Shown here: positions 37,887-61,063 of the stretch, piece by piece
How positions within the stretch are numbered: the first letter of the stretch is position 1
How the letters are laid out: each line of letters begins with the position of its first letter
Source: a phage
Strand: one strand, 5' to 3'
Length of the DNA stretch: 64,000 nt
Sequence record: OZ335964.1
Notes under the pieces: model-generated
The model's input: only the letters and a program-made list of their open reading frames with translations
Told to the model about the DNA's origin: nothing
Database searches by the model: none
Position numbers and translations under genes: made by a program

Positions 37887-37921
37887 TTGATACTCCTTAG
37901 TAGTTCGTTTCGGTATGTGTG

Positions 37922-37950
37922 CATTATAGGGGATCGATGATCCCCTGTCA
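37922..37950 (-). promoter_or_regulatory. Early sigma70-like promoter cassette (TTGACA-N17-TATAAT) with palindromic spacer
   Basis: Minus strand: AAAAAGTTGTTGACA GGGGATCATCGATCCCC TATAAT, then conserved leader ACCGAAACGAAC and RBS before ORF 37886. Confidence 0.6.
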
Positions 37951-37958
37951 ACAACTTT

Positions 37959-38477
37959 TTAGTTATTTTTTAATTGCTCATCTTGCAATAAAGCAATCAC
38001 ATGCTGGCGATGTTCTTCCGACTGAGGCACACCGAAAAAGTTTGTTTTGTAGAAATACTCTAATCGGTCTTCTCGTGTGCTCTCTTCCATCATGATCGCG
38101 GGTAGTCCGAGATTTCGGAAACGTCGCTTTTCTGCTGGCGTAAAATCGCTGTAATACAGCATAGAATCATCATTACCAGCAATGCTAAACTCATCCTTCA
38201 TGAAAGAGAATATTGCGTTTAAACGCTGTTTACCGTCCACGATTTCGATCTCATAGCGAGAGCCATCATCAATCTTAGCCATTGCGATAGCACCAACCGG
38301 AAAATCATTAATCAGGTTTTCGATAAACATACGTTTGTTTTCTGTGTCCCATACTAAAGGACGCTGATAATCTGGGTTCATGTTGATAAAGCCATCTTCT
38401 AGCCATGCTTCATAGACAGATATGACAAAGTTTTTAGTATTGGTATAGTAACGGCGTTTAGGCGTTAAACGGTTCAT
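37959..38477 (-). CDS. DUF262 / ParB-like domain protein
   Basis: Motifs PDYQRPLVW and IVDGKQRLNAI match the DUF262 (GmrSD N-terminal) signature; start set at MNRLT with RBS AGGAGA. Confidence 0.5.
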   Translation of the reverse strand: MNRLTPKRRYYTNTKNFVISVYEAWLEDGFINMNPDYQRPLVWDTENKRMFIENLINDFPVGAIAMAKIDDGSRYEIEIVDGKQRLNAIFSFMKDEFSIAGNDDSMLYYSDFTPAEKRRFRNLGLPAIMMEESTREDRLEYFYKTNFFGVPQSEEHRQHVIALLQDEQLKNN

Positions 38478-38478
38478 G

Positions 38479-38811
38479 TTATAGTCTCCTGAATGGATCA
38501 TCACGTAAATCAATATCTTTTAAGAACTCATCCCATGAATGGCGGATATTGTTCTTAATTCTCCAGATAAGCGCAGGGATTGAACGCTCTCCCATCTGGA
38601 AGTAAGGATCATATGATCCGTATGCCCAATATGCTACTACAATTCCACAATCAGCGCAATAGTATTCTATTTCACTTGCTGGCGACCAAAGTCCATCAAT
38701 ATGATCGGTGATCTTGCTTTCGATGTTATGGCTATGGCAATCAGGGCAACGGATGCAATGACCTTGTTTATCGTAATTTGACGTTAGCGAATACTTAAAC
38801 AATCTCATCAT
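38479..38811 (-). CDS. Zinc-ribbon protein
   Basis: CIRCPDC...C..C..YYCADC cysteine pairs; translationally coupled between the MTase-like and DUF262-like genes. Confidence 0.45.
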   Translation of the reverse strand: MMRLFKYSLTSNYDKQGHCIRCPDCHSHNIESKITDHIDGLWSPASEIEYYCADCGIVVAYWAYGSYDPYFQMGERSIPALIWRIKNNIRHSWDEFLKDIDLRDDPFRRL

Positions 38812-39572
38812 AGATCCTTATTGGCTTCAAATACTGCCTTTGCGAATCCTCGCGGGGTAAGTGACCTGATAGTCTTTGTTCTGGTTCCTTTCCCGCCTAG
38901 CTTAGAATGCTGTTTACTGTACCCTTTCTCAATCGGCAACGGTTTCTTTTCTGGCATTATAAAGCCTTGTCCGGTCCATAAGCAAGTCTTTTTCGGGTAC
39001 ATATCACGGGCGGCAATATACTCAGGAAACGTAGGATGTATATCATCTTCCGGCAAATAACCGCCATATTCCCACGGGTGGAACATGTAATCAGGCTTAC
39101 GCCACATGCTAGAGATAACGCTTACAGGATTCTCTATCATGTAGGGAACTCCTAGCCATTCACCCAAATAAGCTGTTATTTTAGCTGCCCGTACATCATG
39201 AACTTGAATTAATGGTCCTTGCTCTCGTTTCTTTCGTTCAAAGTGTGCAGCGCCACTAACAGCTAAATTTGAACAGCTAGGAAACGCAAAGATCATATCC
39301 GGTTTGCCCCATTCAAGATCCATCGCCCTTTCCAACCAATCCAGATCTATCCATGAATTAACATAAGTTAAATTTGGGTGTTCAAATCGAGTGTTATACT
39401 TTTTATATGTTCCATGATCGGCATCATCAGCATTAAAGCAGATCACTTTATGACCTGCTTTAGCCCATTCTAGACCCATAATACCGGACCCATCGAATGT
39501 ACAAAATATAAGTTTACTTTCCGTGGTTTTCATGATAGCCATACTCTCTTTCTGCTTTGGTTCTAACTGCAA
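38808..39572 (-). CDS. SAM-dependent methyltransferase-like protein, possibly DNA cytosine-C5 type
   Basis: Motifs FDGSGIMG (motif I-like), FPSCSNLAVSG (PC-like), MIENP (ENV-like); true start probably an internal Met because of overlap with the upstream HNH gene. Confidence 0.4.
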   Translation of the reverse strand: MQLEPKQKESMAIMKTTESKLIFCTFDGSGIMGLEWAKAGHKVICFNADDADHGTYKKYNTRFEHPNLTYVNSWIDLDWLERAMDLEWGKPDMIFAFPSCSNLAVSGAAHFERKKREQGPLIQVHDVRAAKITAYLGEWLGVPYMIENPVSVISSMWRKPDYMFHPWEYGGYLPEDDIHPTFPEYIAARDMYPKKTCLWTGQGFIMPEKKPLPIEKGYSKQHSKLGGKGTRTKTIRSLTPRGFAKAVFEANKDL

Positions 39573-40050
39573 CGGCTTCTTCTAGTGTGTCGAAACACCC
39601 TAGATATTTTCTATCACCGCGTCGACCGCCGCCAATTCTAACTACCCATTTATTGTATTTGTTTTTATGTATTCCACTATGTCCGCTTGTATTCTTTTTA
39701 GACTTTGTTTGATTTCTCATGTTGTCGCGGTGTAGTTTAAGTTCAAAGTTAACCGCTCTATTATCTGTCTTAATGTGATTAATATGATCTACTTCATATC
39801 CTTCTGGTATAGGTCCATTGTGGATAATATAACATACTCGATGAACTTTGTAGTTAATAATTTTACCGTCAATTTTTATTGACGATTCAAGATAACGTCC
39901 ACCACTTCCTAGTGACCCGACCTCCTTTCCAGCCCATGCAGCATTCCATTGTTTTATTCTTGATGGGTGTATATCTGTTCTCTCCTTCCATGTAAGGATA
40001 CCAGTGTCAGGATCATAATTAAAGTATTTCTTCCAGTCTATATTGTTCAC
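39514..40050 (-). CDS. HNH homing endonuclease with AP2 DNA-binding domain
   Basis: HNH core (YEVDHINHIKTDNRAVN) and AP2-like region (KWVVRIGGGRRGDRKYLGCFDTLEEAVAVR). Confidence 0.75.
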   Translation of the reverse strand: MNNIDWKKYFNYDPDTGILTWKERTDIHPSRIKQWNAAWAGKEVGSLGSGGRYLESSIKIDGKIINYKVHRVCYIIHNGPIPEGYEVDHINHIKTDNRAVNFELKLHRDNMRNQTKSKKNTSGHSGIHKNKYNKWVVRIGGGRRGDRKYLGCFDTLEEAVAVRTKAEREYGYHENHGK

Positions 40051-40298
40051 GCTGCCCCCATTGGTTTGATAGTAACAGAATCTAAAAGACCTTTGTTAGC
40101 CAGTTCGCGGCAAGTTTTCAGATCCGTAACTTCCCAGCCAGCCGCAATCAGGTTATCAATCAGGCTGTTAGCAACTTCTTCGCTCATGAAAGAGCACTGT
40201 TTGCCGATGGTGTAGCGTACACGCTGTAATTTCAGTTTACGGAAGCCTTTAACGTTCAGGTCTTTAGCGATTTTCTTTGCGGTTTCGATGTTAGCCAT
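40047..40298 (-). CDS. Hypothetical protein
   Basis: 83-aa ORF directly downstream of an early promoter cassette. Confidence 0.5.
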   Translation of the reverse strand: MANIETAKKIAKDLNVKGFRKLKLQRVRYTIGKQCSFMSEEVANSLIDNLIAAGWEVTDLKTCRELANKGLLDSVTIKPMGAA

Positions 40299-40338
40299 TG
40301 TTTGATTCTCCTAAGTGGTATCTCGTCTTGATGTTTGT

Positions 40339-40368
40339 ATTGTAGGGGATCTCCCGATCCCCTGTCAA
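40339..40368 (-). promoter_or_regulatory. Early promoter cassette (TTGACA-N18-TACAAT), palindromic spacer
   Basis: Spacer GGGGATCGGGAGATCCC; conserved leader and RBS AGGAGA before ORF 40298. Confidence 0.55.
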
Positions 40369-40381
40369 CAACTTTTTTAGA

Positions 40382-40855
40382 TTATTTGCACCAAATTCGA
40401 ATTATTTCGTCTCGTTCAAATTTCTGCCAGATTACTCGGTCACCCGCTGCCATGATACTGACAAATCCAGTTGTGTTTCCTGTGTACTTGCTTTTAGTCT
40501 CGGCATCATATTCAAAGAATGGTGCTTTAAGATCGCTAAACTCATCTTTTCCCACAAACTTCATAACATGACGATGCGCGTAATATTCGCTTCTTAGTGT
40601 TGTTGTGATAGTTCCGTCATTATTTGATTTCAGATGTAATTCTGCATCTTCATAAAGACTTGCATCTCGTTGTTTACTTTCAATACCGTCGTTATATGTT
40701 GATTTCGTTGCACTCCAACATTGATAAGTTTTATCAACATTTTCGATCTTTTCCTGTGTCATATCAAAAAGCGGTGCAACCTTTTTCTTAGCCGCGTGTG
40801 CTACGTTGGTCATGGACAGTGCTGCAACAACCACAATAGCAATAATCTTCTTCAT
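40382..40855 (-). CDS. Secreted/periplasmic protein
   Basis: N-terminal signal peptide (MKKIIAIVVVAALSMTNVAHA); RBS AAGGAGA. Confidence 0.55.
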   Translation of the reverse strand: MKKIIAIVVVAALSMTNVAHAAKKKVAPLFDMTQEKIENVDKTYQCWSATKSTYNDGIESKQRDASLYEDAELHLKSNNDGTITTTLRSEYYAHRHVMKFVGKDEFSDLKAPFFEYDAETKSKYTGNTTGFVSIMAAGDRVIWQKFERDEIIRIWCK

Positions 40856-40919
40856 AGTATTCTCCTTTTGTTTTGTGTTGGGAGTATCTTAGCGACACTC
40901 CCGTTATTTTTCAAATCTT

Positions 40920-41201
40920 TTATTCGTGATTAGTTTCGATGTTATACATTTTGCACCAGTTCAGCCAATCGCCCAGATCTTGATAGTTGATGCTTTTATC
41001 TGCTGCCATCGTTTTGGTCTTGATACCCATATGTGCGTTATGAGTAAGCATTTTTACAGTGAACTCAATTTTATCGCCTTTAGCTTTAACATCAACCAGT
41101 TTGGTCCACTGGCTACCAGCGCCGCGAATGTTCATACCAACGATGTTTCCGATGTATGCTTCTTTGTTTTTCAGGATTTCGGTTGCTTTGATGAATTTCA
41201 T
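40920..41201 (-). CDS. Hypothetical protein
   Basis: 93-aa ORF behind an early promoter cassette. Confidence 0.5.
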   Translation of the reverse strand: MKFIKATEILKNKEAYIGNIVGMNIRGAGSQWTKLVDVKAKGDKIEFTVKMLTHNAHMGIKTKTMAADKSINYQDLGDWLNWCKMYNIETNHE

Positions 41202-41234
41202 TTTTGATTCTCCAGTTCGTTTCGGTATGGGTGT

Positions 41235-41263
41235 ATTATGCTATGTTCTTACTTTGGTGTCAA
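41235..41263 (-). promoter_or_regulatory. Early promoter cassette (TTGACA-N17-CATAAT)
   Basis: Upstream AAAAAGTTG UP-like tract, conserved leader CCGAAACGAAC, RBS GGAGAA before ORF 41201. Confidence 0.55.
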
Positions 41264-41270
41264 CAACTTT

Positions 41271-41540
41271 TTAGATATTTTCAGAAATAAATTTTAAAAC
41301 TTGACGTAAATGTTTCTCATCTTTGATAGTCGCCGGAAGTTCTTCTTTTACTTCCTGTGCAAGATAGATATTTCCGTTCCAAGTGAAAGATCCGTCTTCG
41401 TTTACGCGATAGCTGAACATCCACTCGCAATCATTTTCGATTTCATATACACACAGAAGGGTGTAATCGTTAAAGCTATTGATTTCAAGGTCGAAGCCGT
41501 GACGTTTTGCAAAGTTGGTAGTGGTTTTAGTCAGTGCCAT
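41271..41540 (-). CDS. Hypothetical protein
   Basis: 89-aa ORF behind an early promoter cassette. Confidence 0.5.
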   Translation of the reverse strand: MALTKTTTNFAKRHGFDLEINSFNDYTLLCVYEIENDCEWMFSYRVNEDGSFTWNGNIYLAQEVKEELPATIKDEKHLRQVLKFISENI

Positions 41541-41580
41541 TGTTTGATTCTCCTAAGTGGTATCTCGTTTCGATGGGTGT

Positions 41581-41609
41581 ATTATGCTATACACAGGATC
41601 TGGTGTCAA
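41581..41609 (-). promoter_or_regulatory. Early promoter cassette (TTGACA-N17-CATAAT)
   Basis: Conserved leader CATCGAAACGAGATAC and RBS AGGAGA before ORF 41540; sits just downstream of a terminator. Confidence 0.55.
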
Positions 41610-41634
41610 TGCCTTTTTTAAAAATTTTGGCAAT

Positions 41635-41658
41635 AAAAAAGCCGACACTAAGGTCGGC
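41635..41658 (-). terminator. Terminator after ORF 41667, immediately followed by a promoter cassette
   Basis: Minus strand GCCGAC-CTTAGT-GTCGGC followed by TTTTTT. Confidence 0.6.
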
Positions 41659-41666
41659 TAATAAAA

Positions 41667-41975
41667 TCAACGAGATAGATAATCGTTTTGCGCGATCTGG
41701 TCGGCGTATGCTGGTGTTATGTCAATCGCCAACACTTTAACGCGTGCTTTCTTGCGACCTGGGTTTTCTCGTAACCAGTGCTCATGACCGTGCACATTTT
41801 TATATTTTGATGCGGTTTCGAAGGTACGGATCGGACCTGGATAATCTGCGTAAAGGATCTCTAGGTCTTCGGTGATGTAAAAATATACATCATAATTACT
41901 GTTCTCTAGTTTAAGCAGAGAATTGCGAAATTGTGGTAAATTCTCGCGGGTAAATTCAACTACAAGATTTTTCAT
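41667..41975 (-). CDS. HxHW-motif small protein, family member 1
   Basis: YDVYFYITED...HGHEHW...VKVLAIDI; start set at MKNLVVEF (RBS GAGGA after the terminator). Confidence 0.5.
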   Translation of the reverse strand: MKNLVVEFTRENLPQFRNSLLKLENSNYDVYFYITEDLEILYADYPGPIRTFETASKYKNVHGHEHWLRENPGRKKARVKVLAIDITPAYADQIAQNDYLSR

Positions 41976-42000
41976 AGTGATATCCTCATTCAGATAGATT

Positions 42001-42019
42001 AAAAGGGGCTTAATGCCCC
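42001..42019 (-). terminator. Terminator after ORF 42025
   Basis: Minus strand GGGGC-ATTAA-GCCCC followed by TTTT. Confidence 0.55.
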
Positions 42020-42024
42020 CTATA

Positions 42025-42312
42025 TTAAAACAGTCCTTCCTGTACACCGTAGTAGAGTTCATCGCTGATAATTTCATTAATGCGACGGTGTGCATATTCC
42101 TGATTTGCGAAGTTGTCAGCAAGTTCTACTTTAGTTTCGCCGTCATGAGTCCATTTAGTGATAACTTTACCATCTGCAAATTTGAAGTTGAACTCTTTAG
42201 CTACCGCATCGCGTACCAGACATGCAAACTTGTTGTTGCGGATTGCATTATCGGTTTCGTGTGCAGCGTGAGCAAATTTGTTAACTTTCAGAGTGATAGT
42301 AATGTATGCCAT
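42025..42312 (-). CDS. Hypothetical protein
   Basis: 95-aa ORF behind an early promoter cassette. Confidence 0.5.
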   Translation of the reverse strand: MAYITITLKVNKFAHAAHETDNAIRNNKFACLVRDAVAKEFNFKFADGKVITKWTHDGETKVELADNFANQEYAHRRINEIISDELYYGVQEGLF

Positions 42313-42358
42313 AATTTGATTCTCCTAGTTAGAAAGTGTATCTCGTTTCGATGGGTGT

Positions 42359-42387
42359 ATTATGCTATACACCCGATCCGGTGTCAA
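42359..42387 (-). promoter_or_regulatory. Early promoter cassette (TTGACA-N17-CATAAT), palindromic ACACCGGATCGGGTGT
   Basis: Conserved leader CATCGAAACGAGATAC and RBS AGGAGA before ORF 42312. Confidence 0.55.
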
Positions 42388-42394
42388 CAACTTT

Positions 42395-42673
42395 TTATAA
42401 AATAATTTTTTGATATTTTTCTATGATGTTCGTGTAATTCACATCAACCGCTATCACCGTTGCTTCGAATCCACCGTTTAGCCAATGGCTATGGTCATGA
42501 TCGTGAAAGAAACCAAGACCAGTGCGAAGACCTTCTTTATATTCGGCGCGTACATTTAGAGAATCGTCGATAAACAGATAAAACCATGAATTTTTACTAG
42601 GATTGATGATACAACCTTTCAGATTAGGGAGAATATCACGACTAAGAATAAACTTATCACCTACTTTGAACAT
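42395..42673 (-). CDS. HxHW-motif small protein, family member 2
   Basis: WFYLFIDD...HDHDHSHW...TVIAVDV; start set at MFKV (RBS GAGGA). Confidence 0.5.
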   Translation of the reverse strand: MFKVGDKFILSRDILPNLKGCIINPSKNSWFYLFIDDSLNVRAEYKEGLRTGLGFFHDHDHSHWLNGGFEATVIAVDVNYTNIIEKYQKIIL

Positions 42674-42677
42674 AATA

Positions 42678-42998: not shown

Positions 42999-43200
42999 AT
43001 TCTAGTTCTCCGTAATATACGGTAATCCATTTTTCTTCATACTTTGTATCTTTCCAACACACAATCCCGTTTACTGTGCAATCTTTGGAATTGACGAATG
43101 ATTCATATTGTTCTGCATCTTCCATCATTGCATGAGCGGTCTTTTCATCGAATATATCGCAGATCGCTTTATATGCTCGATAATCTTTAAATTTGCTCAT
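42985..43200 (-). CDS. Small protein, paralog of the next ORF
   Basis: MSKFKDYRAYKAI...MMEDAEQ...GIVCWKDT; start set at MSKF. Confidence 0.45.
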   Translation of the reverse strand: MSKFKDYRAYKAICDIFDEKTAHAMMEDAEQYESFVNSKDCTVNGIVCWKDTKYEEKWITVYYGELEYEIN

Positions 43201-43689: not shown

Positions 43690-43869
43690 TTAGAAAGGGA
43701 TGGTCATTTCTTGAGCTTGTACATTCTCGTTAGGATTAAACTTCATCCAACCGATATTGTCTACCAGCATATGTACATTTTTATCATATCCTACGTGAGT
43801 AGTCAACACTAAATGTGCTTTACCTTCAACGATGATTTCCATGTACTTCTGAACTTCGATAGCTTTCAT
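43690..43869 (-). CDS. Small hypothetical protein (59 aa), below track cutoff
   Basis: ATG immediately downstream of an early promoter cassette and its RBS GGAGAA. Confidence 0.4.
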   Translation of the reverse strand: MKAIEVQKYMEIIVEGKAHLVLTTHVGYDKNVHMLVDNIGWMKFNPNENVQAQEMTIPF

Positions 43870-43902
43870 TTTTGATTCTCCGTTTGTTGTCTTGATGGGA
43901 GT

Positions 43903-43931
43903 ATCTTACTACTCCCTTTAATCATTGTCAA
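43903..43931 (-). promoter_or_regulatory. Early promoter cassette (TTGACA-N17-TAAGAT) with GGGAGTA/TACTCCC palindrome
   Basis: Conserved leader and RBS before small ORF 43869. Confidence 0.5.
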
Positions 43932-43934
43932 CTA

Positions 43935-44102
43935 TTATTTGTTAATTTCTGGTGCGTTGCTCGGATAGTAACCTTCTTTAACACCTAGATATTTTGCAAC
44001 CATTCCGGGGATCTTCTGTGCTACTACGATATCGAATTTCAGGTAGTCTTCACCGTGGTTTGCTACAATGTATGCTTCGCATTCTGCTTTAGTCTGGAAC
44101 AT
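43935..44102 (-). CDS. Small hypothetical protein (start set at MFQTK)
   Basis: The longer track ORF would run into the promoter cassette; internal ATG has RBS AGGAGA. Confidence 0.4.
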   Translation of the reverse strand: MFQTKAECEAYIVANHGEDYLKFDIVVAQKIPGMVAKYLGVKEGYYPSNAPEINK

Positions 44103-44135
44103 TTTTATTCTCCTATATCTCGTTGGTATGTGTGC

Positions 44136-44164
44136 ATTATAGGGGATCACCGATCCCCTGTCAA
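44136..44164 (-). promoter_or_regulatory. Early promoter cassette (TTGACA-N17-TATAAT), palindromic spacer GGGGATCGGTGATCCCC
   Basis: Conserved leader ACCAACGAGATA and RBS AGGAGA before ORF 44102. Confidence 0.6.
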
Positions 44165-44169
44165 CAACT

Positions 44170-44463
44170 TTATAATGCTTTATATGCGTATTTCATAAAT
44201 TTGTCTGCCACTTCATTGGCATGTTCAGATTCTACGCCTGATTCGAGAACAATAGCTAGGTCGGTTTCGTCATTCCCGCCGTACCAATGATTTGATGTTC
44301 GATTTTTTTCAATTGGAAATTGGTCACTTTTATCTGTGCGACAAAATACATCTAAATGCTCGTCGATGTAAAAGATCCAATCCTCATAAAGAATAACGGT
44401 ATTAGCCAGATTTTTATTACCTTCAACGAAAGGTTCGGCTACAAACAAATTAGTATGTTCCAT
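44170..44463 (-). CDS. HxHW-motif small protein, family member 5 (divergent)
   Basis: WIFYIDEH...SNHW...LAIVLE. Confidence 0.45.
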   Translation of the reverse strand: MEHTNLFVAEPFVEGNKNLANTVILYEDWIFYIDEHLDVFCRTDKSDQFPIEKNRTSNHWYGGNDETDLAIVLESGVESEHANEVADKFMKYAYKAL

Positions 44464-44520
44464 AGTATTTTCCTCAATTTGTGGGAGAGTATTGCCCCTC
44501 CCGATGATTGTTATATTATA

Positions 44521-44841
44521 TCACACAAAATGGCGTGTCAATGCTTCTTTTGCGGTTCCGCTAAGACTTTCGATCTCGCCTGGCATAACATCAACTGCCA
44601 GAACTTCTACAACATCCTCTGATCCTAACCAGTGAGTATGACCTTTGTAGAACTTGATAACCAGACTACCTTCCTCGTCCCATTTAACGCTATCGCTAGC
44701 CCACCACACATCACCGTCGATAAAGTTGATGTAAAGCACACTACGCCACATTGAATTAATTACTTTCAATACTGCGCCTTTCATCTCTTCCACGGTGTGG
44801 TCTTCCATTTTGAAGACCTCACCTACCTGAACTTTTGCCAT
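44521..44841 (-). CDS. HxHW-motif small protein, family member 6
   Basis: VLYINFIDGD...GHTHW...VVEVLAVDV. Confidence 0.5.
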   Translation of the reverse strand: MAKVQVGEVFKMEDHTVEEMKGAVLKVINSMWRSVLYINFIDGDVWWASDSVKWDEEGSLVIKFYKGHTHWLGSEDVVEVLAVDVMPGEIESLSGTAKEALTRHFV

Positions 44842-44858: not shown

Positions 44859-45038
44859 TTACATAACAATCACGCCAGCCGTTGAAAGTTGATGTTTCAA
44901 CTGAGCATTTTCTGCTACTGTCAAATCAATGATTTCTTGTGACGCTGCAATCATATAACCATTGGTGATATTGTTTTGCATCAGTTCAATGGTTTCTTCG
45001 TTGTAGCGGATTTTAGCGATGATTTCGTTGAAGTTCAT
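44859..45038 (-). CDS. Small hypothetical protein (59 aa), below track cutoff
   Basis: ATG directly after a promoter cassette and RBS AGGAGA. Confidence 0.4.
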   Translation of the reverse strand: MNFNEIIAKIRYNEETIELMQNNITNGYMIAASQEIIDLTVAENAQLKHQLSTAGVIVM

Positions 45039-45072
45039 GTTTGATTCTCCTAGTTCGTTTCGGTATGTGTGT

Positions 45073-45101
45073 AGTATAGGGGATCACCGATCCCCTGTCA
45101 A
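45073..45101 (-). promoter_or_regulatory. Early promoter cassette (TTGACA-N17-TATACT), palindromic spacer GGGGATCGGTGATCCCC
   Basis: Conserved leader ACCGAAACGAAC and RBS AGGAGA before small ORF 45038. Confidence 0.6.
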
Positions 45102-45114
45102 CAACTTTTTTGAA

Positions 45115-45591
45115 TTATTTTTCTTGATGCTCGCGCTCGTACTTTTCGAAATAAAATTCTACTGGCTGGTCGTGGATTGACAGTAAGCCAAAGCGTTTAG
45201 CCGCTCGCAACCCCATATTGCGCTGAATGTACTTCTGGAAGTTCTCGCGTATACACTTACGCCAGTATTCTAAGCCCATACAGCTTTTATAAAGATTGCA
45301 TTGCACACACGCCGGATTCATGTTATCAAGTATATCATGCTCCGGTTTATGCATTCCTACAACCTTATACTTCCACGATCCATCATCATTACGGGCAATT
45401 CGTCCATTTTCATCATAGACTACTTTTGAGCGTCGTAATACTGGTTTGATGTGGTCTGCGTGCCAGCGATCCCCTAGTTCCTCGCCACAATAGGCACAAT
45501 GTCCACCATATTTCATTTTCAGGATCTGGCGTTGCTCTTTCTTTGACAATTTTTTAGGTTTAGGGGCTTTCGCCCCTTCATTATCACACAT
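45115..45591 (-). CDS. HNH endonuclease family protein
   Basis: CAYCGEELG...HADHIKP...NMNPACVQCN; translationally coupled to the ligase gene. Confidence 0.6.
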   Translation of the reverse strand: MCDNEGAKAPKPKKLSKKEQRQILKMKYGGHCAYCGEELGDRWHADHIKPVLRRSKVVYDENGRIARNDDGSWKYKVVGMHKPEHDILDNMNPACVQCNLYKSCMGLEYWRKCIRENFQKYIQRNMGLRAAKRFGLLSIHDQPVEFYFEKYEREHQEK

Positions 45592-52498: not shown

Positions 52499-52897
52499 TT
52501 AACTTTCCAGAATATCGCGAGCTTCGTTACGCTCCTTGATGATTTTCAGGACAAATTCCAGTTTTTCTTTGTTCAGTGTTCCGTTTTCCATTGCTTCTTT
52601 GACGGTAAACACTCCGCCACCTTGCCCGTATACAGTGACAGTGATTTCACCTAACATCGTGGTATGAAAACCGCCAATTTTCGGTGATTCGAAAGAAACA
52701 ATCACCTCACGGATAGTATTGCCATCGTTGATTTCTTCCAGCGTAATATCGCTTTTGTAAGCGGTTGCTTTAACCATACGGATCAGCATAGTCTGATCTG
52801 GGGAGATGGTCATTTTGTCCATTGCATGTTGCAATGCAGCGTAACCGAAAACTTTAACGAAGTCCAGAACGTCTTTGCGAGTTTGAAATTTAATCAT
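52499..52897 (-). CDS. Hypothetical protein
   Basis: 132-aa ORF behind an early promoter cassette. Confidence 0.5.
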   Translation of the reverse strand: MIKFQTRKDVLDFVKVFGYAALQHAMDKMTISPDQTMLIRMVKATAYKSDITLEEINDGNTIREVIVSFESPKIGGFHTTMLGEITVTVYGQGGGVFTVKEAMENGTLNKEKLEFVLKIIKERNEARDILES

Positions 52898-52938
52898 CTT
52901 GATACTCCTTAGTAAGTTAGTTTCGTTTCGATGGGGGT

Positions 52939-52967
52939 ATCTTACTACCCCCGTTTCAGGCTGTCAA
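52939..52967 (-). promoter_or_regulatory. Early promoter cassette (TTGACA-N17-TAAGAT) with GGGGGTA/TACCCCC palindrome
   Basis: Conserved leader CATCGAAACGAAAC and RBS AAGGAG before ORF 52897. Confidence 0.55.
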
Positions 52968-53186
52968 CTACTTTTTAATGACAAGTTCGAATTTTGCTAC
53001 CTTACGTCCTCGTTTATTGAAAGCAACCCACGGACGGTTTTCAATGTAGAACAATTCTTCGCCAATAATGAATACTGGCTGATTGTAAAGGCGACCCATC
53101 AGGTCACGCTGGCGAATGGTAGTAGATTCGTATACTTCGCCTACTACAAAGTGTTTGCTGATAGAGTCGGTGCAAGTAAATTTCAT
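52968..53186 (-). CDS. Hypothetical protein
   Basis: 72-aa ORF behind an early promoter cassette. Confidence 0.45.
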   Translation of the reverse strand: MKFTCTDSISKHFVVGEVYESTTIRQRDLMGRLYNQPVFIIGEELFYIENRPWVAFNKRGRKVAKFELVIKK

Positions 53187-53219
53187 TTTGATTCTCCTGT
53201 GTTTCGTTTCGATGGGGGT

Positions 53220-53248
53220 ATCTTACTACCCCCGCTATTCAGTGTCAA
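53220..53248 (-). promoter_or_regulatory. Early promoter cassette (TTGACA-N17-TAAGAT) with GGGGGTA/TACCCCC palindrome
   Basis: Near-identical to the 52939 copy; RBS AGGAGA before ORF 53186. Confidence 0.55.
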
Positions 53249-53255
53249 CTACTTT

Positions 53256-53474
53256 TTACTTGTTGTATTCATTCCACCATTGAGTGAGCTTATCAATTAT
53301 TTTTGTGTTTCTATCCAACTTATCCCACCGTTTTCGAGGGTTTATCAACCGGAATAGGTAAGGTGTACTTGTTAAGTGAACTCTGTCAATATAGTGATTG
53401 ATGTACTGTTTTTCAATTCTAAGTTTCATCTTTTTACGATGAAAATATGCAATGACTTGTTCTTCTGTTTCCAT
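53256..53474 (-). CDS. Hypothetical protein
   Basis: 72-aa ORF behind an early promoter cassette. Confidence 0.45.
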   Translation of the reverse strand: METEEQVIAYFHRKKMKLRIEKQYINHYIDRVHLTSTPYLFRLINPRKRWDKLDRNTKIIDKLTQWWNEYNK

Positions 53475-53498
53475 ATGTTCCTCCGTTTCGATGTGCGT

Positions 53499-53527
53499 AT
53501 TATGCTATGGCAAGATCTGATTGTCAA
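53499..53527 (-). promoter_or_regulatory. Early promoter cassette (TTGACA-N17-CATAAT)
   Basis: Conserved leader CATCGAAACGGAGG before ORF 53474; directly downstream of a terminator. Confidence 0.5.
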
Positions 53528-53538
53528 CACCCAATAAC

Positions 53539-53562
53539 AAAAAAGTCGCCACTATGGGCGAC
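53539..53562 (-). terminator. Terminator after the HAD-like gene
   Basis: Minus strand GTCGCC-CATAGT-GGCGAC followed by TTTTTT. Confidence 0.6.
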
Positions 53563-53574
53563 TTTGAACAAACA

Positions 53575-55564: not shown

Positions 55565-55731
55565 TATTCGACAACCTCAAAGCATTTATCATCAGGAAGA
55601 ATAGCCCATTCTACGCCGTATTCATCCTCAACGTAGTAGCAAGTCCCATCATGTCGAGCATCATATACATCACCGACAACAAAGCTATCGGCTAGTTCAA
55701 AATCTACAGCAACACATTTTAATTTGGTCAT
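55564..55731 (-). CDS. Small hypothetical protein (start set at MTKLK)
   Basis: RBS GAGGA; the longer track ORF would overlap the promoter cassette. Confidence 0.4.
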   Translation of the reverse strand: MTKLKCVAVDFELADSFVVGDVYDARHDGTCYYVEDEYGVEWAILPDDKCFEVVE

Positions 55732-55762
55732 AATAAAATCCTCACTTGTTTTTGATGGTTGT

Positions 55763-55791
55763 ATTATAGCGGGGATTTCTCCCCGCGTCAA
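55763..55791 (-). promoter_or_regulatory. Promoter-like element (TTGACG-N17-TATAAT) with GCGGGGA/TCCCCGC palindromic spacer
   Basis: Between nrdA stop and small ORF 55731. Confidence 0.45.
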
Positions 55792-55800
55792 CACTTATTT

Positions 55801-58044
55801 TTACAGTTTGCAAGATGAACATTCGCTAGCGTCTTCCGTACCATCAGCACCATCACGCACGTTAGCGTAATACAGTGTCTTGAGGCCGTAATATTGAGCA
55901 AATAACATATCATCTAATACATCAGCAATATCGACTTTACCAGTCTTATAAGTGCTTGGATCATAGGATGTATTGGAACTAATCGCCTGGTCGACAAACT
56001 TCTGCATAATAGCTGCCAGTGTCAGATAAGGCTTGTTACCTTTCTTGATCAGTGTCCAAAGCAAGTCAATAACATCAGCATTATTCTCTACGTTCGGAAT
56101 AACCTGATTAAATTGCCCTTCTTTCGATCCTTTAACCGATACAATCCCGCGAGGCGGTTCAATACCGTTTGTGCTGTTAGACACCTGAGAAGACGACTCA
56201 CAAGGCATCAGCGCCGAAAGCGTACTGTTACGAATGCCATATTTTTTCAGGTCTTCGCGCAGTTCTTCCCAATCCATCTCATACACCGGGTCAACCAGTT
56301 CATCTACTGTCTTTTTGTACCAGTCGATAGGCAGTTCACCGCGACCATAACGTGTTTCGTGCATCAGTTCGCAAGCACCCTTCTCTTTAGCCAGTTGCAC
56401 ACTAGCCTTAATCAGAGCATATTGCAAGCGTTCAAACGTTTTATGCGTAAACTCGTTGGCGTCTTCATATGTGAAGAAATTATCCGCCAGATATGATGCA
56501 AAGTTAGTCACACCAACACCCAGAGAGCGACGTTTTTTTGCTGTCAGAGCTTGTTCTACGGGATAATCCTGGTAATCTAACAAGTTGTCAAGTGCACGCA
56601 CCATAACCATAGCAATGCGTTCTACTTCTTCCATGTTTTCGATATCGAAATTACCTAAAACATATGCTGCCAAAGTACATAGGCTGATCTCTGAATCATC
56701 ACGCCCCATTGGTTTAGTAGGCAGTGCAATTTCGCAACACAGGTTAGATTGTTTAATCGGTGCTACATTGCGAATAAACGCCCCGTGATTGTTCATGTTG
56801 TCTGTGAACGCTGGATAGATTCGACCAGTGTTAAAACGTTCAATTGCCACCGCTAAAAACAGGTCTTCGGCTTTAACACGAGTTTTACGAACACTCGGAT
56901 CTTTTTCCAGTTTTTCGTAAAGCTGGCGGAAACCTTCCTCATCTCGGAAGTACAGATCCCACAACAAGCCACCTGCAACATCTGGACTAAACAGAGTAAT
57001 GTAATCCCGTTTAAGGAATCGCTCTACCATCAGGTTATTAATCTGTACGCCGTAATCAAGATGGCGAATGCGGTTATCTTCTACCCCTTTGTTGTTCTTC
57101 AACACAATAAGACTTTCAAACTCTAAATGCCACATTGGGTAATAGAGAGTCGCCGCCCCGCCACGAATACCGCCTTGTGAGCATGACTTAACGGCAGTCT
57201 GAAAATGTTTCCAGAATGGGATAACGCCAGTATGACGAACTTCACCATGCCCGATCTTAGATCCTTCCGCGCGAATCATGCCAGCGTTGATACCGATGCC
57301 AGCACGCTTACTAATATACTTGATGATTGCATTTGCTGTTTCGTTGATGCCCTGCAATGAGTCATCAGATTCGATCACCACACACGAACTAAATTGGCGT
57401 GTTGGAGTACGCACACCAGCCATAATCGGAGTAGGAAGAGAAATTTGCTTATTAGCAACAGCATTATAAAAATCAATCACATGTTCAAGTCGATTTTCTG
57501 TCTCTTCTTGATGTAAACACATACCGATCAGCATATACGCAAATTGCGGTGTTTCGATGATTTTCTTAGTGCTGCGATCCTGAACAAGATATTTCTCTTT
57601 TAATTGCATCGCACCAGCATAGGTCATTTTAAAATCAAGTTTATGATCGATGAATTTCTCCAGATATTCCACTTCTTCACGGGAATACTTTTGCAGAATT
57701 TCGCGATCATATTTTCCGGTTGCAATATTACGCTCAATATGGCTGTAAAAATCAATCGGTTGGAATTGACCGTATACTGATTTACGAAGCGCGAACATTG
57801 CAAGGTTACTTGCTACATATTGATAATCAGGTGTTTCTACAGTAATGTTGTCTGCGGCGACCTTAATCAATACTTTCTGGATATCGTTGGTAGACATACC
57901 TTCTGTCAGAAGTGGTTCAACCATATCAAACAATTCATATGGATCAACGTTATGACCTTCGGCTGCCGCTTCCAGAATTTTCATTACTTTTTCTTTTTCA
58001 AACGGAACAGTCAGACCGGAAGACTTAACAACATTTTTAATCAT
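55801..58044 (-). CDS. nrdA: Ribonucleotide reductase large subunit
   Basis: 747 aa; ATP-cone N-terminus, active-site NLCCEI, C-terminal CSSC-type redox tail. Confidence 0.92.
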   Translation of the reverse strand: MIKNVVKSSGLTVPFEKEKVMKILEAAAEGHNVDPYELFDMVEPLLTEGMSTNDIQKVLIKVAADNITVETPDYQYVASNLAMFALRKSVYGQFQPIDFYSHIERNIATGKYDREILQKYSREEVEYLEKFIDHKLDFKMTYAGAMQLKEKYLVQDRSTKKIIETPQFAYMLIGMCLHQEETENRLEHVIDFYNAVANKQISLPTPIMAGVRTPTRQFSSCVVIESDDSLQGINETANAIIKYISKRAGIGINAGMIRAEGSKIGHGEVRHTGVIPFWKHFQTAVKSCSQGGIRGGAATLYYPMWHLEFESLIVLKNNKGVEDNRIRHLDYGVQINNLMVERFLKRDYITLFSPDVAGGLLWDLYFRDEEGFRQLYEKLEKDPSVRKTRVKAEDLFLAVAIERFNTGRIYPAFTDNMNNHGAFIRNVAPIKQSNLCCEIALPTKPMGRDDSEISLCTLAAYVLGNFDIENMEEVERIAMVMVRALDNLLDYQDYPVEQALTAKKRRSLGVGVTNFASYLADNFFTYEDANEFTHKTFERLQYALIKASVQLAKEKGACELMHETRYGRGELPIDWYKKTVDELVDPVYEMDWEELREDLKKYGIRNSTLSALMPCESSSQVSNSTNGIEPPRGIVSVKGSKEGQFNQVIPNVENNADVIDLLWTLIKKGNKPYLTLAAIMQKFVDQAISSNTSYDPSTYKTGKVDIADVLDDMLFAQYYGLKTLYYANVRDGADGTEDASECSSCKL

Positions 58045-58113
58045 ATTACCTCACTTCATATTTTAGCAGGAACAAGTTTATCCTCCATATTGGGGGCTTT
58101 CGCCCCCCTTTGT

Positions 58114-59346
58114 TTATACTGCCATTTGAGCGGTGATTGCTGGATGGCTTTGATAGTTGTGAATTTTAAAGTCTTTCGGAGTCTTTGTCAATACCTCATC
58201 TAATGATTTAAATTCCGGCAACTCAATTGTTGGTTTATCAAACGGAACACGGCTTAACTGTTCCATAACTTGATCAAAATGGTTTTTGTAAATGTGAGTA
58301 TCTCCACCAGAGAAAATCAGTTCTCCTACCTCAAGATCACACATTTTCGCTATGATGTGAGTTAACAGCGCATAGCTGGCAACATTAAAGGGCAAGCCCA
58401 AAAAGCTGTCTACGCTTCGCTGAAACCACATACAAGACAGTTTACCTTCATTGACATAGAATTGTACGAACGGATGACATACACCCAATACAGCATTATG
58501 TGTTCCTTGTACGTTCCATGAGTCAATGATGATACGTCGATCCGTTGGATTGTTTTTAATTTGTTCAATCACGTTTTGTAACTGGTCTTCCCAAATCTTC
58601 GGGCGATAGACATATTCTTCATCGTCTTTAGTGCTCGATGTGTCTACGTCCATACTAGCAAAGATCGTGGTATCTGGCGCTAAAATATCCCCGCCCAGAT
58701 AATCACTATCAAGCAGATAACCGAAATAACCATCATCTACCCATTCCTGGAATCCCCACAAGCAATATGCATCATTAACAAAATTAGATTGAGTCTTCCA
58801 GTGGTCTGCTACTAAGAATAGATTATATTCAGAATCAAACTCTTCATAACGCATACCACGCCAGATGGCACATAAACGGTCTTCTGTTTCATTGGTTGGC
58901 GTAAAGTCTTCTACCCACGGGTGCTTAAATGTATGTGTATATTTGCTCTTAACGCGCTTAATTTTGATTTCACCGTGTGGATGAATCGGTTTGCGTCGCC
59001 AAGCCATACCATACATATTGCCGACATTATAACCATTGAATCGCAAAGGATTCTTTTCTTTCATATCAAGACAGTTGCCGCGCCAAATGTCGAAGGCTTC
59101 TTCGTCAAACTTACCGCGTGTAATTTCCTGTAAGCGACGGCGGTCAAGTGATCCCTCCATAAACCATAGCAACTCGCCAATTACAGAGGCTGTAGCCATC
59201 TTTTTAGTGGTCAGTAAGGGGAAACCCTTGCTTAAATCGATTCGCATCTCTGCGCCGAATTTAGAGAGCGTACCTACCCCCGTGCGGTCTTCACGAGGCC
59301 AGCCATTATCAAGAACATCACGCAACAGTTTCAAATATTCTTTCAT
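58114..59346 (-). CDS. td: Thymidylate synthase with a large in-frame insertion
   Basis: Aligns with ThyA at both ends (DRTGVGT, LLWF, RRIIIDSWNV, CHPFVQFYVNEGKLSC, FLGLPFNVASYALLTHI, GGDTHIY); about 130 extra residues between them; no intron. Confidence 0.88.
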   Translation of the reverse strand: MKEYLKLLRDVLDNGWPREDRTGVGTLSKFGAEMRIDLSKGFPLLTTKKMATASVIGELLWFMEGSLDRRRLQEITRGKFDEEAFDIWRGNCLDMKEKNPLRFNGYNVGNMYGMAWRRKPIHPHGEIKIKRVKSKYTHTFKHPWVEDFTPTNETEDRLCAIWRGMRYEEFDSEYNLFLVADHWKTQSNFVNDAYCLWGFQEWVDDGYFGYLLDSDYLGGDILAPDTTIFASMDVDTSSTKDDEEYVYRPKIWEDQLQNVIEQIKNNPTDRRIIIDSWNVQGTHNAVLGVCHPFVQFYVNEGKLSCMWFQRSVDSFLGLPFNVASYALLTHIIAKMCDLEVGELIFSGGDTHIYKNHFDQVMEQLSRVPFDKPTIELPEFKSLDEVLTKTPKDFKIHNYQSHPAITAQMAV

Positions 59347-59587
59347 CCCACTTCACCTTTTTCTTATTGATTGCTTTCTTACGCAGTTTTGCTACTGTCT
59401 CGTCAATATCGATAAAGACAACGCCCGGATCGAATACAGTAACAGGTCTTGAAATGTCGCTATTTTCCTGTACTGGAAGCCATGACGCTTTAGCTTCATC
59501 ATAGAGATATTGTAAACCGTAATAATCTACGGCTACTGCGTAGTTTTCACTGGTAGCTGACCATAATTGAATAATGGTTATTTTCAT
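59318..59587 (-). CDS. Hypothetical protein (start set at MKIT)
   Basis: ORF between frd and td. Confidence 0.45.
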   Translation of the reverse strand: MKITIIQLWSATSENYAVAVDYYGLQYLYDEAKASWLPVQENSDISRPVTVFDPGVVFIDIDETVAKLRKKAINKKKVKWDERIFETVA

Positions 59588-59680
59588 TATTGTTCCCGTC
59601 CGCAATGTAAACACCGACTACCAGCAAACATCAAAGATTCACCACAATGTTTGCACTCATAATCTGTCAGAATTTTCATG

Positions 59681-60250
59681 TTACACCTTCTTACGTTCTA
59701 AAATTTGTTCGCTGATCAGGTAATCATCAAGGAAGTAATTATGTTCTTCTTTTGTTGCAAAGTCAAAATATAATTCCTGAATCATTTCCTTAGAGATACC
59801 AACATCATATTCAAATGGATCGTTGATTCCTGAACGTTGAACATACGTTAACACAATACGATCCGCAAAGTCAACCGCTTTTTCAATCAGGGAAGGTCCA
59901 CCGATAACACTTACCAAACCTTGCGTTTTCTCTAGGGCTTTTAACAGATCCTTCAATTCAATTCCAGTGTACACATCAGGTTGGTCGCCGTTTTTTGTTT
60001 TCGGTTCTGGCTTGCTGGTATCGGTGCTAACAACCACATTCAAGCGCCCCCAAAGTGCTTTAGGCAGACTTTCAAAGGTATTACGTCCCATTACTACCGC
60101 AGCAAAATCAACCTCACCAATGGTGCGGATTTTAAAGTTCTCCATATCTTTTTTGATTGGACGACCCCACGGTAAACCGCCTTTAAAACCAAAAGCCCAA
60201 TTTTCATCCGACATTTTAGTGTCACCAATCGCAAATACACATTGAATCAT
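59681..60250 (-). CDS. frd: Dihydrofolate reductase
   Basis: DHFR N-terminal motif (GLPWGRPIKKDMENFK); start set at MIQCVFA with RBS AGGAGA. Confidence 0.85.
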   Translation of the reverse strand: MIQCVFAIGDTKMSDENWAFGFKGGLPWGRPIKKDMENFKIRTIGEVDFAAVVMGRNTFESLPKALWGRLNVVVSTDTSKPEPKTKNGDQPDVYTGIELKDLLKALEKTQGLVSVIGGPSLIEKAVDFADRIVLTYVQRSGINDPFEYDVGISKEMIQELYFDFATKEEHNYFLDDYLISEQILERKKV

Positions 60251-60264
60251 AATATAATCTCCTG

Positions 60265-60594
60265 TCAAATCAATTTAAAGAAGTTTTCGTTTACATTTTC
60301 TTCGGTGATTGCTGTCTTAAATTCAGCTTCATCATCAGGCGAAACATAATAGCGTTCGGAATAATCACGCCACATTTTCAGTAAGCTAACACCAACATTA
60401 ACACCATTTTCCCAGAAACGGAATACAATTTTATGTGCGGTGTAACGGTAATCACTTTGAATCAAGCTACCATCCCCGCGACGAGATTCATAAACCGTAA
60501 TACATTCACGATTAGCGGCTTTAATGCATTCTTCAATAGTTCCACACGAGACAATTTCGGTTGATTCGTCTACGATTTTTTCTACTGTCCACAT
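60265..60594 (-). CDS. Hypothetical protein
   Basis: 109-aa ORF behind an early promoter cassette. Confidence 0.5.
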   Translation of the reverse strand: MWTVEKIVDESTEIVSCGTIEECIKAANRECITVYESRRGDGSLIQSDYRYTAHKIVFRFWENGVNVGVSLLKMWRDYSERYYVSPDDEAEFKTAITEENVNENFFKLI

Positions 60595-60625
60595 AATATA
60601 ATCCTCTCTTTGTTTCTATGTTTGT

Positions 60626-60653
60626 ATTATACATCATCTGTGTTCGGCGTCAA
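60626..60653 (-). promoter_or_regulatory. Promoter-like element (TTGACG-N16-TATAAT)
   Basis: Upstream of ORF 60594 with RBS GAGAGGA. Confidence 0.4.
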
Positions 60654-60979
60654 CCTTTTTGTTCCATGAAAAGCGGTGCTGTTTCTTCTTTCAGTTTAAT
60701 AACTAGCGCGGAAACTTCATCAAGAAAATCTTTTTCCATATGAGCAAGCATTGATTTAGAATCTTTGATGACTTTCAAAGAATATTCACTTAGATTTCCT
60801 TTTCCTAACAATAATGCGGGATACACACTATGTGGGATCTCGATTTCATGATATTCACTCATAGTATAATATTTGTGAATTTTTAAATCTATATTTCTTC
60901 GTTGTACGTCTACATCAGCAATGACATACAGAAGTTCGATTTTATCACTTTTCTGGGAAAGGGTAGCATTCAAAAACAT
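60650..60979 (-). CDS. Hypothetical protein
   Basis: 109-aa ORF behind an early promoter cassette. Confidence 0.5.
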   Translation of the reverse strand: MFLNATLSQKSDKIELLYVIADVDVQRRNIDLKIHKYYTMSEYHEIEIPHSVYPALLLGKGNLSEYSLKVIKDSKSMLAHMEKDFLDEVSALVIKLKEETAPLFMEQKG

Positions 60980-61008
60980 TGTTAATCCTCCGTTGTTTCG
61001 ATGAGTTC

Positions 61009-61036
61009 ATTATACATTACCTCGCCAACATGTCAA
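61009..61036 (-). promoter_or_regulatory. Early promoter cassette (TTGACA-N16-TATAAT)
   Basis: Conserved leader CATCGAAACAACGGAGG before ORF 60979; directly downstream of the gene 32 terminator. Confidence 0.5.
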
Positions 61037-61063
61037 CACCTTTTTCATAAATTTTTAGGCAAT

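Follow-up and report, generated by a model that had tools for sequence, protein, structure and literature searches.

The window analysed here is the whole 64,000-nucleotide (nt) stretch of phage sequence record OZ335964.1. It belongs to Krischvirus, that is, to an RB49-like T4-type coliphage, and is 96-97% identical to the genomes of ECD7, JEP8, RB49, phi1 and JSE. The gene order alt, ligase, gene 31, cd, pseT, rnlA, denA, nrdB, nrdA, td, frd, gene 32 is that of RB49 open reading frames ORF184-241. Compared with the RB49 set, the window is without ORF186, 191, 195/196, 207, 210/211 and 226, and it has a homolog of ORFan192 and an extra open reading frame (ORF) at 60650-60979. Repeated copies of an early promoter with its leader lie between the small genes of this stretch, and they are the subject of this report. 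The stretch that bears them corresponds to the hyperplastic region of RB49 and phi1, from alt to gene 32, in which promoter-early stem-loop (PeSL) elements were first defined and tested (Arbiol et al. 2010, PMC2839356). We consider it very probable that the window copies are the PeSL cassettes of an RB49-like T4-type coliphage, acting as early expression units, attenuators and recombination sites.

A profile made from 10 clear copies was run with nhmmer over both strands of the whole window. It gives 14 strong matches on the minus strand, at 37890-61059, and none on the plus strand; the four copies that were not seeds have E = 8e-14, 2e-9, 1.5e-8 and 9e-5. An earlier note on this DNA had counted about 14 copies, and 14 is the exact number of such matches. 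A fifteenth copy, at 40856-40925, was missed both by that note and by the profile because its -35 hexamer is degenerate. The copies are listed below with the first base of the -35 in plus-strand coordinates, followed by the -35 hexamer, the spacer length and the -10 hexamer.

Cassette 1: 37884..37973, minus strand, -35 at 37951; upstream of the ORF185 homolog; TTGACA-17-TATAAT; spacer hairpin GGGGATC-ATC-GATCCCC, -14.1 kcal/mol.
Cassette 2: 40296..40390, minus strand, -35 at 40368; upstream of the ORF190 homolog; TTGACA-18-TACAAT; spacer hairpin GGGGATC-GGGA-GATCCCC, -17.2 kcal/mol.
Cassette 3 (PeSL194/193 ortholog): 41199..41285, minus strand, -35 at 41263; TTGACA-17-CATAAT; without hairpin (-2.0 kcal/mol) and without upstream terminator.
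Cassette 4: 41538..41659, minus strand, -35 at 41609; TTGACA-17-CATAAT; weak 6-bp hairpin over the -10; canonical terminator at 41640-41659 directly upstream.
Cassette 5 (PeSL199/198 ortholog): 42310..42409, minus strand, -35 at 42387; TTGACA-17-CATAAT; 8-bp hairpin GGGTGTAT-AGCATA-ATACACCC over the -10, -14.0 kcal/mol.
Cassette 6 (PeSL205/204 ortholog): 43867..43953, minus strand, -35 at 43931; TTGACA-17-TAAGAT; hairpin GGGAGTA-GTAAGA-TACTCCC over the -10, -12.2 kcal/mol.
Cassette 7 (PeSL206/205 ortholog): 44100..44186, minus strand, -35 at 44164; TTGACA-17-TATAAT; hairpin GGGGATC-GGT-GATCCCC.
Cassette 8: 45036..45123, minus strand, -35 at 45101; TTGACA-17-TATACT; hairpin GGGGATC-GGT-GATCCCC.
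Cassette 9: 52895..52989, minus strand, -35 at 52967; TTGACA-17-TAAGAT; hairpin GGGGGTA-GTAAGA-TACCCCC over the -10, -14.0 kcal/mol.
Cassette 10 (PeSL228/227 ortholog): 53184..53270, minus strand, -35 at 53248; the same -10-overlapping hairpin as in cassette 9, -14.1 kcal/mol.
Cassette 11 (PeSL229/228 ortholog): 53472..53565, minus strand, -35 at 53527; TTGACA-17-CATAAT; without internal hairpin; canonical terminator at 53542-53565 directly upstream.
Cassette 12 (PeSL234/233 ortholog): 55729..55813, minus strand, -35 at 55791; downstream of nrdA; TTGACG-17-TATAAT; hairpin GCGGGGA-GAAA-TCCCCGC, -19.0 kcal/mol, z -5.9.
Cassette 13: 60592..60675, minus strand, -35 at 60653; TTGACG-16-TATAAT; without hairpin; one edge of a variable slot.
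Cassette 14: 60977..61088, minus strand, -35 at 61036; TTGACA-16-TATAAT; without internal hairpin; canonical terminator at 61069-61088 directly upstream; the other edge of the slot.
Fifteenth, degenerate cassette (PeSL193/192 ortholog): 40856..40925, minus strand; TTGAAA, 17-nt spacer, -10 TAAGAT; 9-bp hairpin over the -10, -16.2 kcal/mol, z -5.6.
Weaker family member (PeSL208/207 type): 44464..44563, minus strand; TTGACA-15-TATAAT (or 17-TAATAT); hairpin in the transcribed leader.

The module is about 85 bases long and all copies are in direct orientation. The -35 hexamer is TTGACA in 12 of the 14 copies and TTGACG in two, which the earlier note gave as 55763 and 60626, the low plus-strand ends of their -35 to -10 cores. 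Spacers are 16-18 nt long and the -10 reads TATAAT, TATACT, TACAAT, CATAAT or TAAGAT; agreement with the sigma-70 hexamers extends to at least 10 of 12 positions in all 14 copies and to at least 11 of 12 in 11 of them. Directly 5' of the -35, an A-tract such as AAAAAGTTG or AAAAAGTAG is present in 12-13 of the 14, and in most copies the TAA stop of the preceding gene is embedded in it. Each cassette has a CAT start site whose A stands 7 nt past the -10. A leader of 24-46 nt, rich in A and C (for example CATCGAAACGA or CATACCGAAACGA), leads to a ribosome-binding site (RBS), GGAG, GAGG or AGGA, 4-11 nt ahead of an ORF-opening ATG in 14/14. The parts that had been described earlier, in the order A-rich tract, -35, spacer, -10, leader and RBS before the ATG, are thus all borne out.

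Chance is rejected as the origin of this likeness by the profile matches and by shuffle controls. The window has 23 matches to TTGACA-N15-19-TANNNT (22 of them on the minus strand), against 5.5 +/- 2.1 in shuffles, and 0/100 shuffles reach 23; compared pair by pair over their full length, the cassettes have a mean identity of 66%, and shuffled cassettes one of 55 +/- 4%. The two pairs that had been singled out as near-identical do stand apart. Copies 44164 and 45101 have 97% identity in the core from -35 to -10 and 85% across the entire cassette, their spacers being the same at 17/17 positions, while for 52967 and 53248 the figures are 93% and 80%, with identical 33-nt blocks of hairpin plus leader. 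A sensitive blastn search with one cassette as query places the family at 445 sites in 61 independent phage records, 60 of them from RB49-like Escherichia/Shigella phages; the match in an Erwinia phage (E = 5e-4, marginal) we take as promoter-consensus noise. The repeats are therefore present in independent assemblies, and an assembly artefact is rejected on the strength of these 61 records. Rfam gives no match over 34000-64000 at gathering thresholds, which means that no curated RNA family covers the cassettes.

It had been stated that the cassettes stand upstream of most small genes. A count from the gene list reduces this to 13 of about 30 small genes (about 43%) plus ORF225; the remaining small genes are arranged in overlapping stop/start arrays. 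Of the downstream genes, 13 of 14 are small ORFs annotated as hypothetical in RB49, and all lie between alt and gene 32 (RB49 ORF185-241). The fifteenth cassette heads the ORFan192 homolog (40382-40855), with 87% nucleotide identity across the aligned block.

RNA folding predicts a stable hairpin in 9/14 cassettes, at -12 to -19 kcal/mol and mostly with z below -2. These elements had been taken for perfect palindromes filling the spacer; they are hairpins with loops of 3-6 nt (the supposed palindromes having 7 bp and loops of 3-4 nt), and GGGGGTAGTAAGATACCCCC, which had been quoted as a spacer, covers 8 bases at the end of the spacer, the whole -10 (TAAGAT) and the next 6 bases. Five copies carry the hairpin in the spacer, as GGGGATC-loop-GATCCCC in 37951, 40368, 44164 and 45101 and as GCGGGGA-GAAA-TCCCCGC in 55791, where the stem starts at the sixth base of the -35, the final G of TTGACG. 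Four carry it over the -10, as GGG(A/G)GTA-GTAAGA-TAC(T/C)CCC in 43931, 52967 and 53248 and as GGGTGTAT-AGCATA-ATACACCC in 42387. Copy 41609 has the weak 6-bp hairpin over its -10, and no internal hairpin is present in copies 41263, 53527, 60653 and 61036. Stems of at least five different sequences and registers occupy one place; in all of them the 5' arm is rich in G and the 3' arm in C.

Since every internal hairpin is positioned upstream of its own cassette's start site, it can occur only in transcripts begun further upstream. The hairpins of the spacer class are followed by the -10 hexamer, which gives them a UAUAAU tail. Several copies had been noted as sitting immediately after a terminator, and canonical T-run terminators do lie directly upstream of 41609, 53527 and 61036. 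A separate upstream terminator accompanies 3/5 copies without a strong internal hairpin and 0/9 hairpin-bearing copies. This complementarity of internal hairpins and separate terminators is a minor observation that does not appear in the accessible parts of the PeSL literature; the same can be said of the sixth -35 base drawn into the stem at 55791.

How do these cassettes compare with the published ones? According to PMC2839356, a PeSL element consists of an AT-rich tract that holds the stop codon of the preceding gene, a sigma-70 promoter that is nearly perfect, a stem-loop with a G-run and a C-run in one of five positions, and a Shine-Dalgarno (SD) sequence and ATG at the 3' end; there are 51-52 copies per genome, mostly heading ORFans. 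The same source puts the activity of the wild-type PeSL206/205 clone, with lacZ as reporter, at about 13,000 Miller units, and finds termination by the PeSL211/210 stem-loop to be as good as that by rrnB T1. It further describes mini-circles with ORF191-194, ORF192-193 or ORF210, obtained by inverse polymerase chain reaction in RB49/phi1, in which the sequenced crossovers lie between the -10 and the SD or ATG. The early-promoter consensus for RB49, which allows T or C at -12, is in accord with 5'-end mapping, and RB49 is without motA (PMC1524935).

The window cassettes share with the PeSLs of RB49, phi1 and JSE their genus, genomic region, architecture and placement classes of the stem-loop (spacer, over the -10, upstream). 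The sole difference between copy 44164 and RB49 PeSL206/205 is a single-base deletion near the RBS, and comparison with the RB49 intergenic regions shows 41263, 43931, 53527 and 55791 to be nearly base-for-base PeSL194/193, 205/204, 229/228 and 234/233; orthologs or near-identical copies of 193/192, 199/198 and 228/227 are present as well. At the site of cassette 5, RB49 has the stem GGGGATAT/ATATCCCC, with compensated base changes relative to the window stem. The features of a PeSL that can be read from sequence are found together here: the promoter, the AT-rich tract with a stop, the stem-loop, SD and ATG, the hyperplastic location, the orthology and the association with insertions and deletions (indels). 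The earlier identification of the cassettes as PeSLs was correct, and by these sequence comparisons they are the already published PeSL cassettes of RB49-type coliphages, not a new feature. Specific to the window are only the set of modules present and the chimeric cassettes that result from it, some window cassettes being new chimeras of published ones.

PeSLs have also been described in PST/T4 and in nt-1/KVP40 (Comeau et al. 2014, PMC4122927). The idea is the same, an early promoter with a stem-loop between small variable genes and beside indels. The hexamers are different (TTTACW..TAYWAT and TTGYVH..TAWWAT), as are the stems (AGNA-loop-TCNT and A3-4G3-loop-C3T3-4), and the stem-loops there lie mostly upstream of the promoter. 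The sequence family of the window is confined to Krischvirus.

To see where gene content differs, positions 35000-63000 were aligned to seven relatives: RB49, phi1, OZ035808, JSE, ECD7, SFHK24 and FL04. Among 49 gene junctions compared, 14 hold a cassette, and 9/14 of these differ by an indel or replacement from one or more of the seven relatives, against 11/35 of the others (one-sided Fisher p = 0.037). At six cassette junctions (37951, 40368, 41609, 45101, 52967 and 61036) the flanking alignments overlap by 42-106 nt, which means that the window has one cassette where the relative has one or more genes between two cassettes; the overlap is at most 17 nt at non-cassette junctions.

Three-way alignments show 37951, 41609, 45101 and 52967 to be clean chimeras, in which the left part follows the cassette that lies upstream in the relative and the right part the one that lies downstream. 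The change from one to the other takes place within sequence that the two cassettes share. For 37951, it is located in the conserved leader CATACCGAAACGAA; like the crossovers of the published mini-circles (PMC2839356), it falls between the -10 and the SD. Cassette 1 (37951) joins a left part from RB49 PeSL187/186 to a right part from PeSL186/185, and cassette 4 (41609) is a chimera at a place where RB49 and OZ035808 hold an extra 0.4 kb or so (RB49 ORF195-196). Cassette 8 (45101) combines the two cassettes that flank ORF210 in phi1 and RB49, its left part being PeSL212(211)/210, the cassette upstream of ORF210, and its right part PeSL210/209; ORF210 and ORF211 are both missing from the window. 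In the same way, cassette 9 (52967) combines RB49 PeSL227/226 and PeSL226/225, and the window is without ORF226.

Other differences are bounded by cassettes too. FL04 has a 3.5-kb deletion that runs from cassette 40368 to cassette 43931, and cassette 40368 is also one edge of the ORF191/ORF192 swap. The slot between cassettes 13 and 14 holds the ORF 60650-60979 in the window and a 1.4-kb endonuclease gene in RB49/phi1; in JSE it is empty, the two flanking cassettes being fused into one. The junction left by the missing ORF207 falls at the RBS of the PeSL208/207-type member (44461-44477). The proposal of modular shuffling by recombination between copies is supported by these chimeric cassettes and cassette-bounded indels.

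If the cassettes act in the window as their counterparts do in RB49, the following mechanism can be suggested. Each cassette would be a compact unit read by the host sigma-70 RNA polymerase directly after infection, composed of an A-rich UP-like tract, a near-consensus -35 and -10, a start at CAT, a short unstructured A/C-rich leader, a GGAG-type RBS and the ATG. In read-through RNA the hairpin may attenuate or terminate transcription, or at least form a 3' end that protects the RNA. Hairpins of the spacer class would find their U/A-rich tail in the -10 hexamer itself, and copies without an internal hairpin would tend to use a separate canonical terminator just upstream. Since direct repeats of about 85 nt lie between many small non-essential genes, the very active homologous recombination of the phage could cross over inside the cassettes. 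Such a crossover would delete, insert or swap the intervening gene or genes, and every product would still have a functional promoter and RBS. The present comparison itself shows the anatomy, the orthology with published PeSLs, the chimeras and the indels bounded by cassettes; promoter and terminator activity and mini-circles come from the literature on RB49/phi1 (PMC2839356), and it is from there that we infer the same activities for each window copy.

Several results weigh against this interpretation. Hairpin and upstream terminator are both absent from cassettes 41263 and 60653. A scan for canonical intrinsic terminators detects no internal hairpin, the T-run being absent, and we did not adopt the idea that the internal hairpins are canonical intrinsic terminators; they share with rho-independent terminators the GC-rich stem-loop at the 3' end of a gene, without the T-run. 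In the class over the -10 the hairpin is followed by the tail AUCGAAACG, which has no U-rich run at all, so that termination by this class is doubtful. Covariation was tested in three classes of hairpin. In two of them 95-96% of the stem cells are paired, each class has 1-3 compensated pairs, and the observed covariation score is reached by 75, 19 and 64 of 500 shuffles in the three classes. Covariation thus gives weak support to the hairpins; the variety of stems at one site is the stronger argument for structure over sequence. As for shuffling, when cassette junctions are compared with other intergenic gaps of at least 40 nt, the excess of breakpoints is not significant (9/14 vs 4/9, p = 0.31). 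Under the broader published definition, the gaps 40856-40919 and 44464-44520, two of these four, also count as PeSLs. The case for shuffling consequently rests on the chimeric junctions and not on breakpoint enrichment. Even there, a direct-repeat signature at indels is expected wherever small genes carry similar promoters; it marks the sites of crossover, not selection for shuffling.

In a first alternative, the cassettes may be ordinary strong early promoters, alike because of functional constraint (on the UP element, the consensus hexamers, the start site and a strong RBS) and common descent, with recombination incidental to them and of no special role, and with the hairpins being terminators of the upstream genes squeezed into short gaps. 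We regard this as possible, though clearly less likely than the PeSL interpretation. It is in keeping with the fact that the conserved parts are the hexamers, the A-tract and the RBS, with the ordinary terminators upstream of hairpin-less copies, and with breakpoints being not significantly commoner at cassettes than at other long gaps. It does not account well for likeness that reaches parts which a promoter does not need, such as the 17/17 spacer identity of 44164/45101 and the 33-nt block of 52967/53248, nor for halves of cassettes being mixed and matched with clean crossovers, nor for the mini-circle junctions sequenced inside PeSLs in RB49/phi1 (PMC2839356). It should be said that the two explanations differ chiefly in emphasis.

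The way in which sequence changes at the cassettes speaks for the PeSL interpretation and also enters into a second alternative. Mismatches were counted in 32 orthologous, non-recombinant cassette pairs.

-35 hexamer: 0/192 mismatches.
-10 hexamer: 2/192 (1%).
A-tract: 1%.
Leader: 3.2%.
Spacer: 8.0%.
60 nt upstream of the A-tract: 2.2%.
First 60 nt of the downstream gene: 1.6%.

Although the spacer changes fast, the potential to form a hairpin is retained. At the same spacer sites, relatives have GGGGATC/GATCCCC, GGGGAG/CTCCCC or GGGGGTC/GATCCCC (with a G-T pair), and over the -10 they have GGGTGTAT/ATACACCC, GGGGATAT/ATATCCCC or GGGGGTAT/ATATCCCC. The loop of PeSL206/205 (window 44136-44164) is GGT in the window, RB49, JSE and ECD7, its reverse complement ACC in OZ035808 and phi1, and ACA in SFHK24; the difference between GGT and ACC could be due to inversion of the loop or to gene conversion from another cassette. 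Neither the hypervariable spacer beside near-invariant hexamers nor the GGT/ACC loop at one orthologous site was met in the accessible PeSL literature, and both are minor observations.

Could the hairpins act on DNA? By extruding as cruciforms or from single strands they might provoke cleavage or template switching during replication and hence recombination, so that the cassettes would be active hotspots beyond their part in attenuation, resembling a minimal mobile element without an enzyme of its own. A spacer/hairpin segment that changes about 4 times faster than its flanks (8.0% vs about 2%), the reverse-complemented loop found in two genomes against four, and the reported block to sequencing reactions by PeSL stem-loops on single-stranded template (PMC2839356) would fit such a role. 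The loop differences are explained equally well by gene conversion between cassettes, both variants being present in each genome. Crossover zones include sequence downstream of the hairpin, namely the leader in 37951 and the interval from the -10 to the SD/ATG in the published mini-circles (same source), and 7-bp stems are short for cruciform extrusion. On balance we think a role of this kind unlikely.

A third alternative, also raised in the earlier note, is that the inverted repeats with GATC are operators or Dam-methylation switches of the early promoters, for instance for shut-off or for sensing replication. GATC is indeed locally frequent, with 11 occurrences in 420 nt of promoter cores against 2.3 expected, and it occupies spacer positions 4-7 or 5-8 in 7/14 cassettes, three of which are without the GGGGATC hairpin. 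The region also encodes a DNA methyltransferase (38808-39572, minus strand; phrog_757, E = 5e-89), with no match to Pfam or NCBIfam, Dam-type families included. However, 8 of the 11 GATC belong to one sub-family of hairpins related by descent (the four GGGGATC..GATCCCC hairpins), and it is this descent that accounts for the local enrichment; over the whole genome its frequency is as expected (observed/expected 1.03). In relatives, the corresponding cassettes have hairpins free of GATC (GGGGAGGATAACTCCCC, GGGAGGTTAAACTCCCC; GGGGAG..CTCCCC) or have lost it (CCGGATA, CCAGAAC in SFHK24). Several unrelated stems at one site argue for structure and not for a specific recognition sequence. A recognition sequence conserved across copies and relatives was looked for and not found, GATC being present in 7/14 spacers and not required. 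The Dam/operator proposal is therefore not supported by the sequence, and we consider it very improbable.

A transposable element, autonomous or miniature, is rejected, because the crossovers are homologous and internal to the cassette, without target duplication or terminal repeats; no transposase was found among five ORFs of the region scanned against Pfam, which comprise two HNH endonucleases, one GmrSD_N protein and two without a match.

Most structural differences away from the strict-family cassettes involve homing-endonuclease genes. The window has two of its own, both absent at their sites in all seven relatives and both at junctions without a cassette.

HNH_3 homing endonuclease: 39514-40050, minus strand; replaces ORF189.1 beside the methyltransferase gene.
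HNH_3+AP2 endonuclease: 62134-62730, minus strand; between genes 59 and 32; the AP2 match is weak (E = 7e-5, below the Pfam gathering score).

The endonuclease genes of the relatives adjoin gene 31 and nrdB. Insertion of homing endonucleases in T4-like phages likewise yields presence or absence of single genes among close relatives in this same region. The junctions differ: most of those without a strict-family cassette involve an endonuclease gene or have little or no repeated flank, and those with a cassette have 42-106 nt of repeated cassette. The exception is the ORF240 endonuclease of RB49/phi1, which occupies the slot bounded by cassettes 60653 and 61036.

The PeSL cassettes, acting as proposed above, would account for the gain, loss and exchange of small accessory genes in T4-type phages with gene expression left intact. 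This is of relevance to host-range adaptation and to the stability of therapeutic phages of the RB49/phi1/JSE group. The window is confirmatory in this respect, being a further independent genome with the predicted recombinant topologies (a single chimeric cassette as opposed to a gene between two cassettes). For practical purposes, the cassettes mark early transcription units for annotation, and their positions predict differences in gene content among close relatives.

A few sequences resemble the cassettes outside the list given above. A related element lies between alt and the next gene.

Related element: 35470..35557, minus strand; TTGACT-17-TATACT; long hairpin over the -10, -20.9 kcal/mol, then TTTT.

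Here promoter and terminator are combined in one sequence. Two consensus promoters TTGACA-16-TATAAT (19790 and 19225; 19160-19830, minus strand) stand in the otherwise late-gene half of the window; the one at 19790 directly follows a terminator, and the resemblance of both to the cassette family is weak (E = 0.35 for 19225).

Two observations on restriction may be added. GGCC is scarce across the whole window, with 19 occurrences against 68 expected from trinucleotide frequencies (ratio 0.28), which suggests avoidance of a GGCC-type restriction site. The ORF187 homolog (37959-38513, minus strand) has a GmrSD_N (DUF262) domain (E = 6e-20), the N-terminal domain of type IV restriction enzymes that act on modified DNA, and such a domain is unexpected in the early region of a phage.

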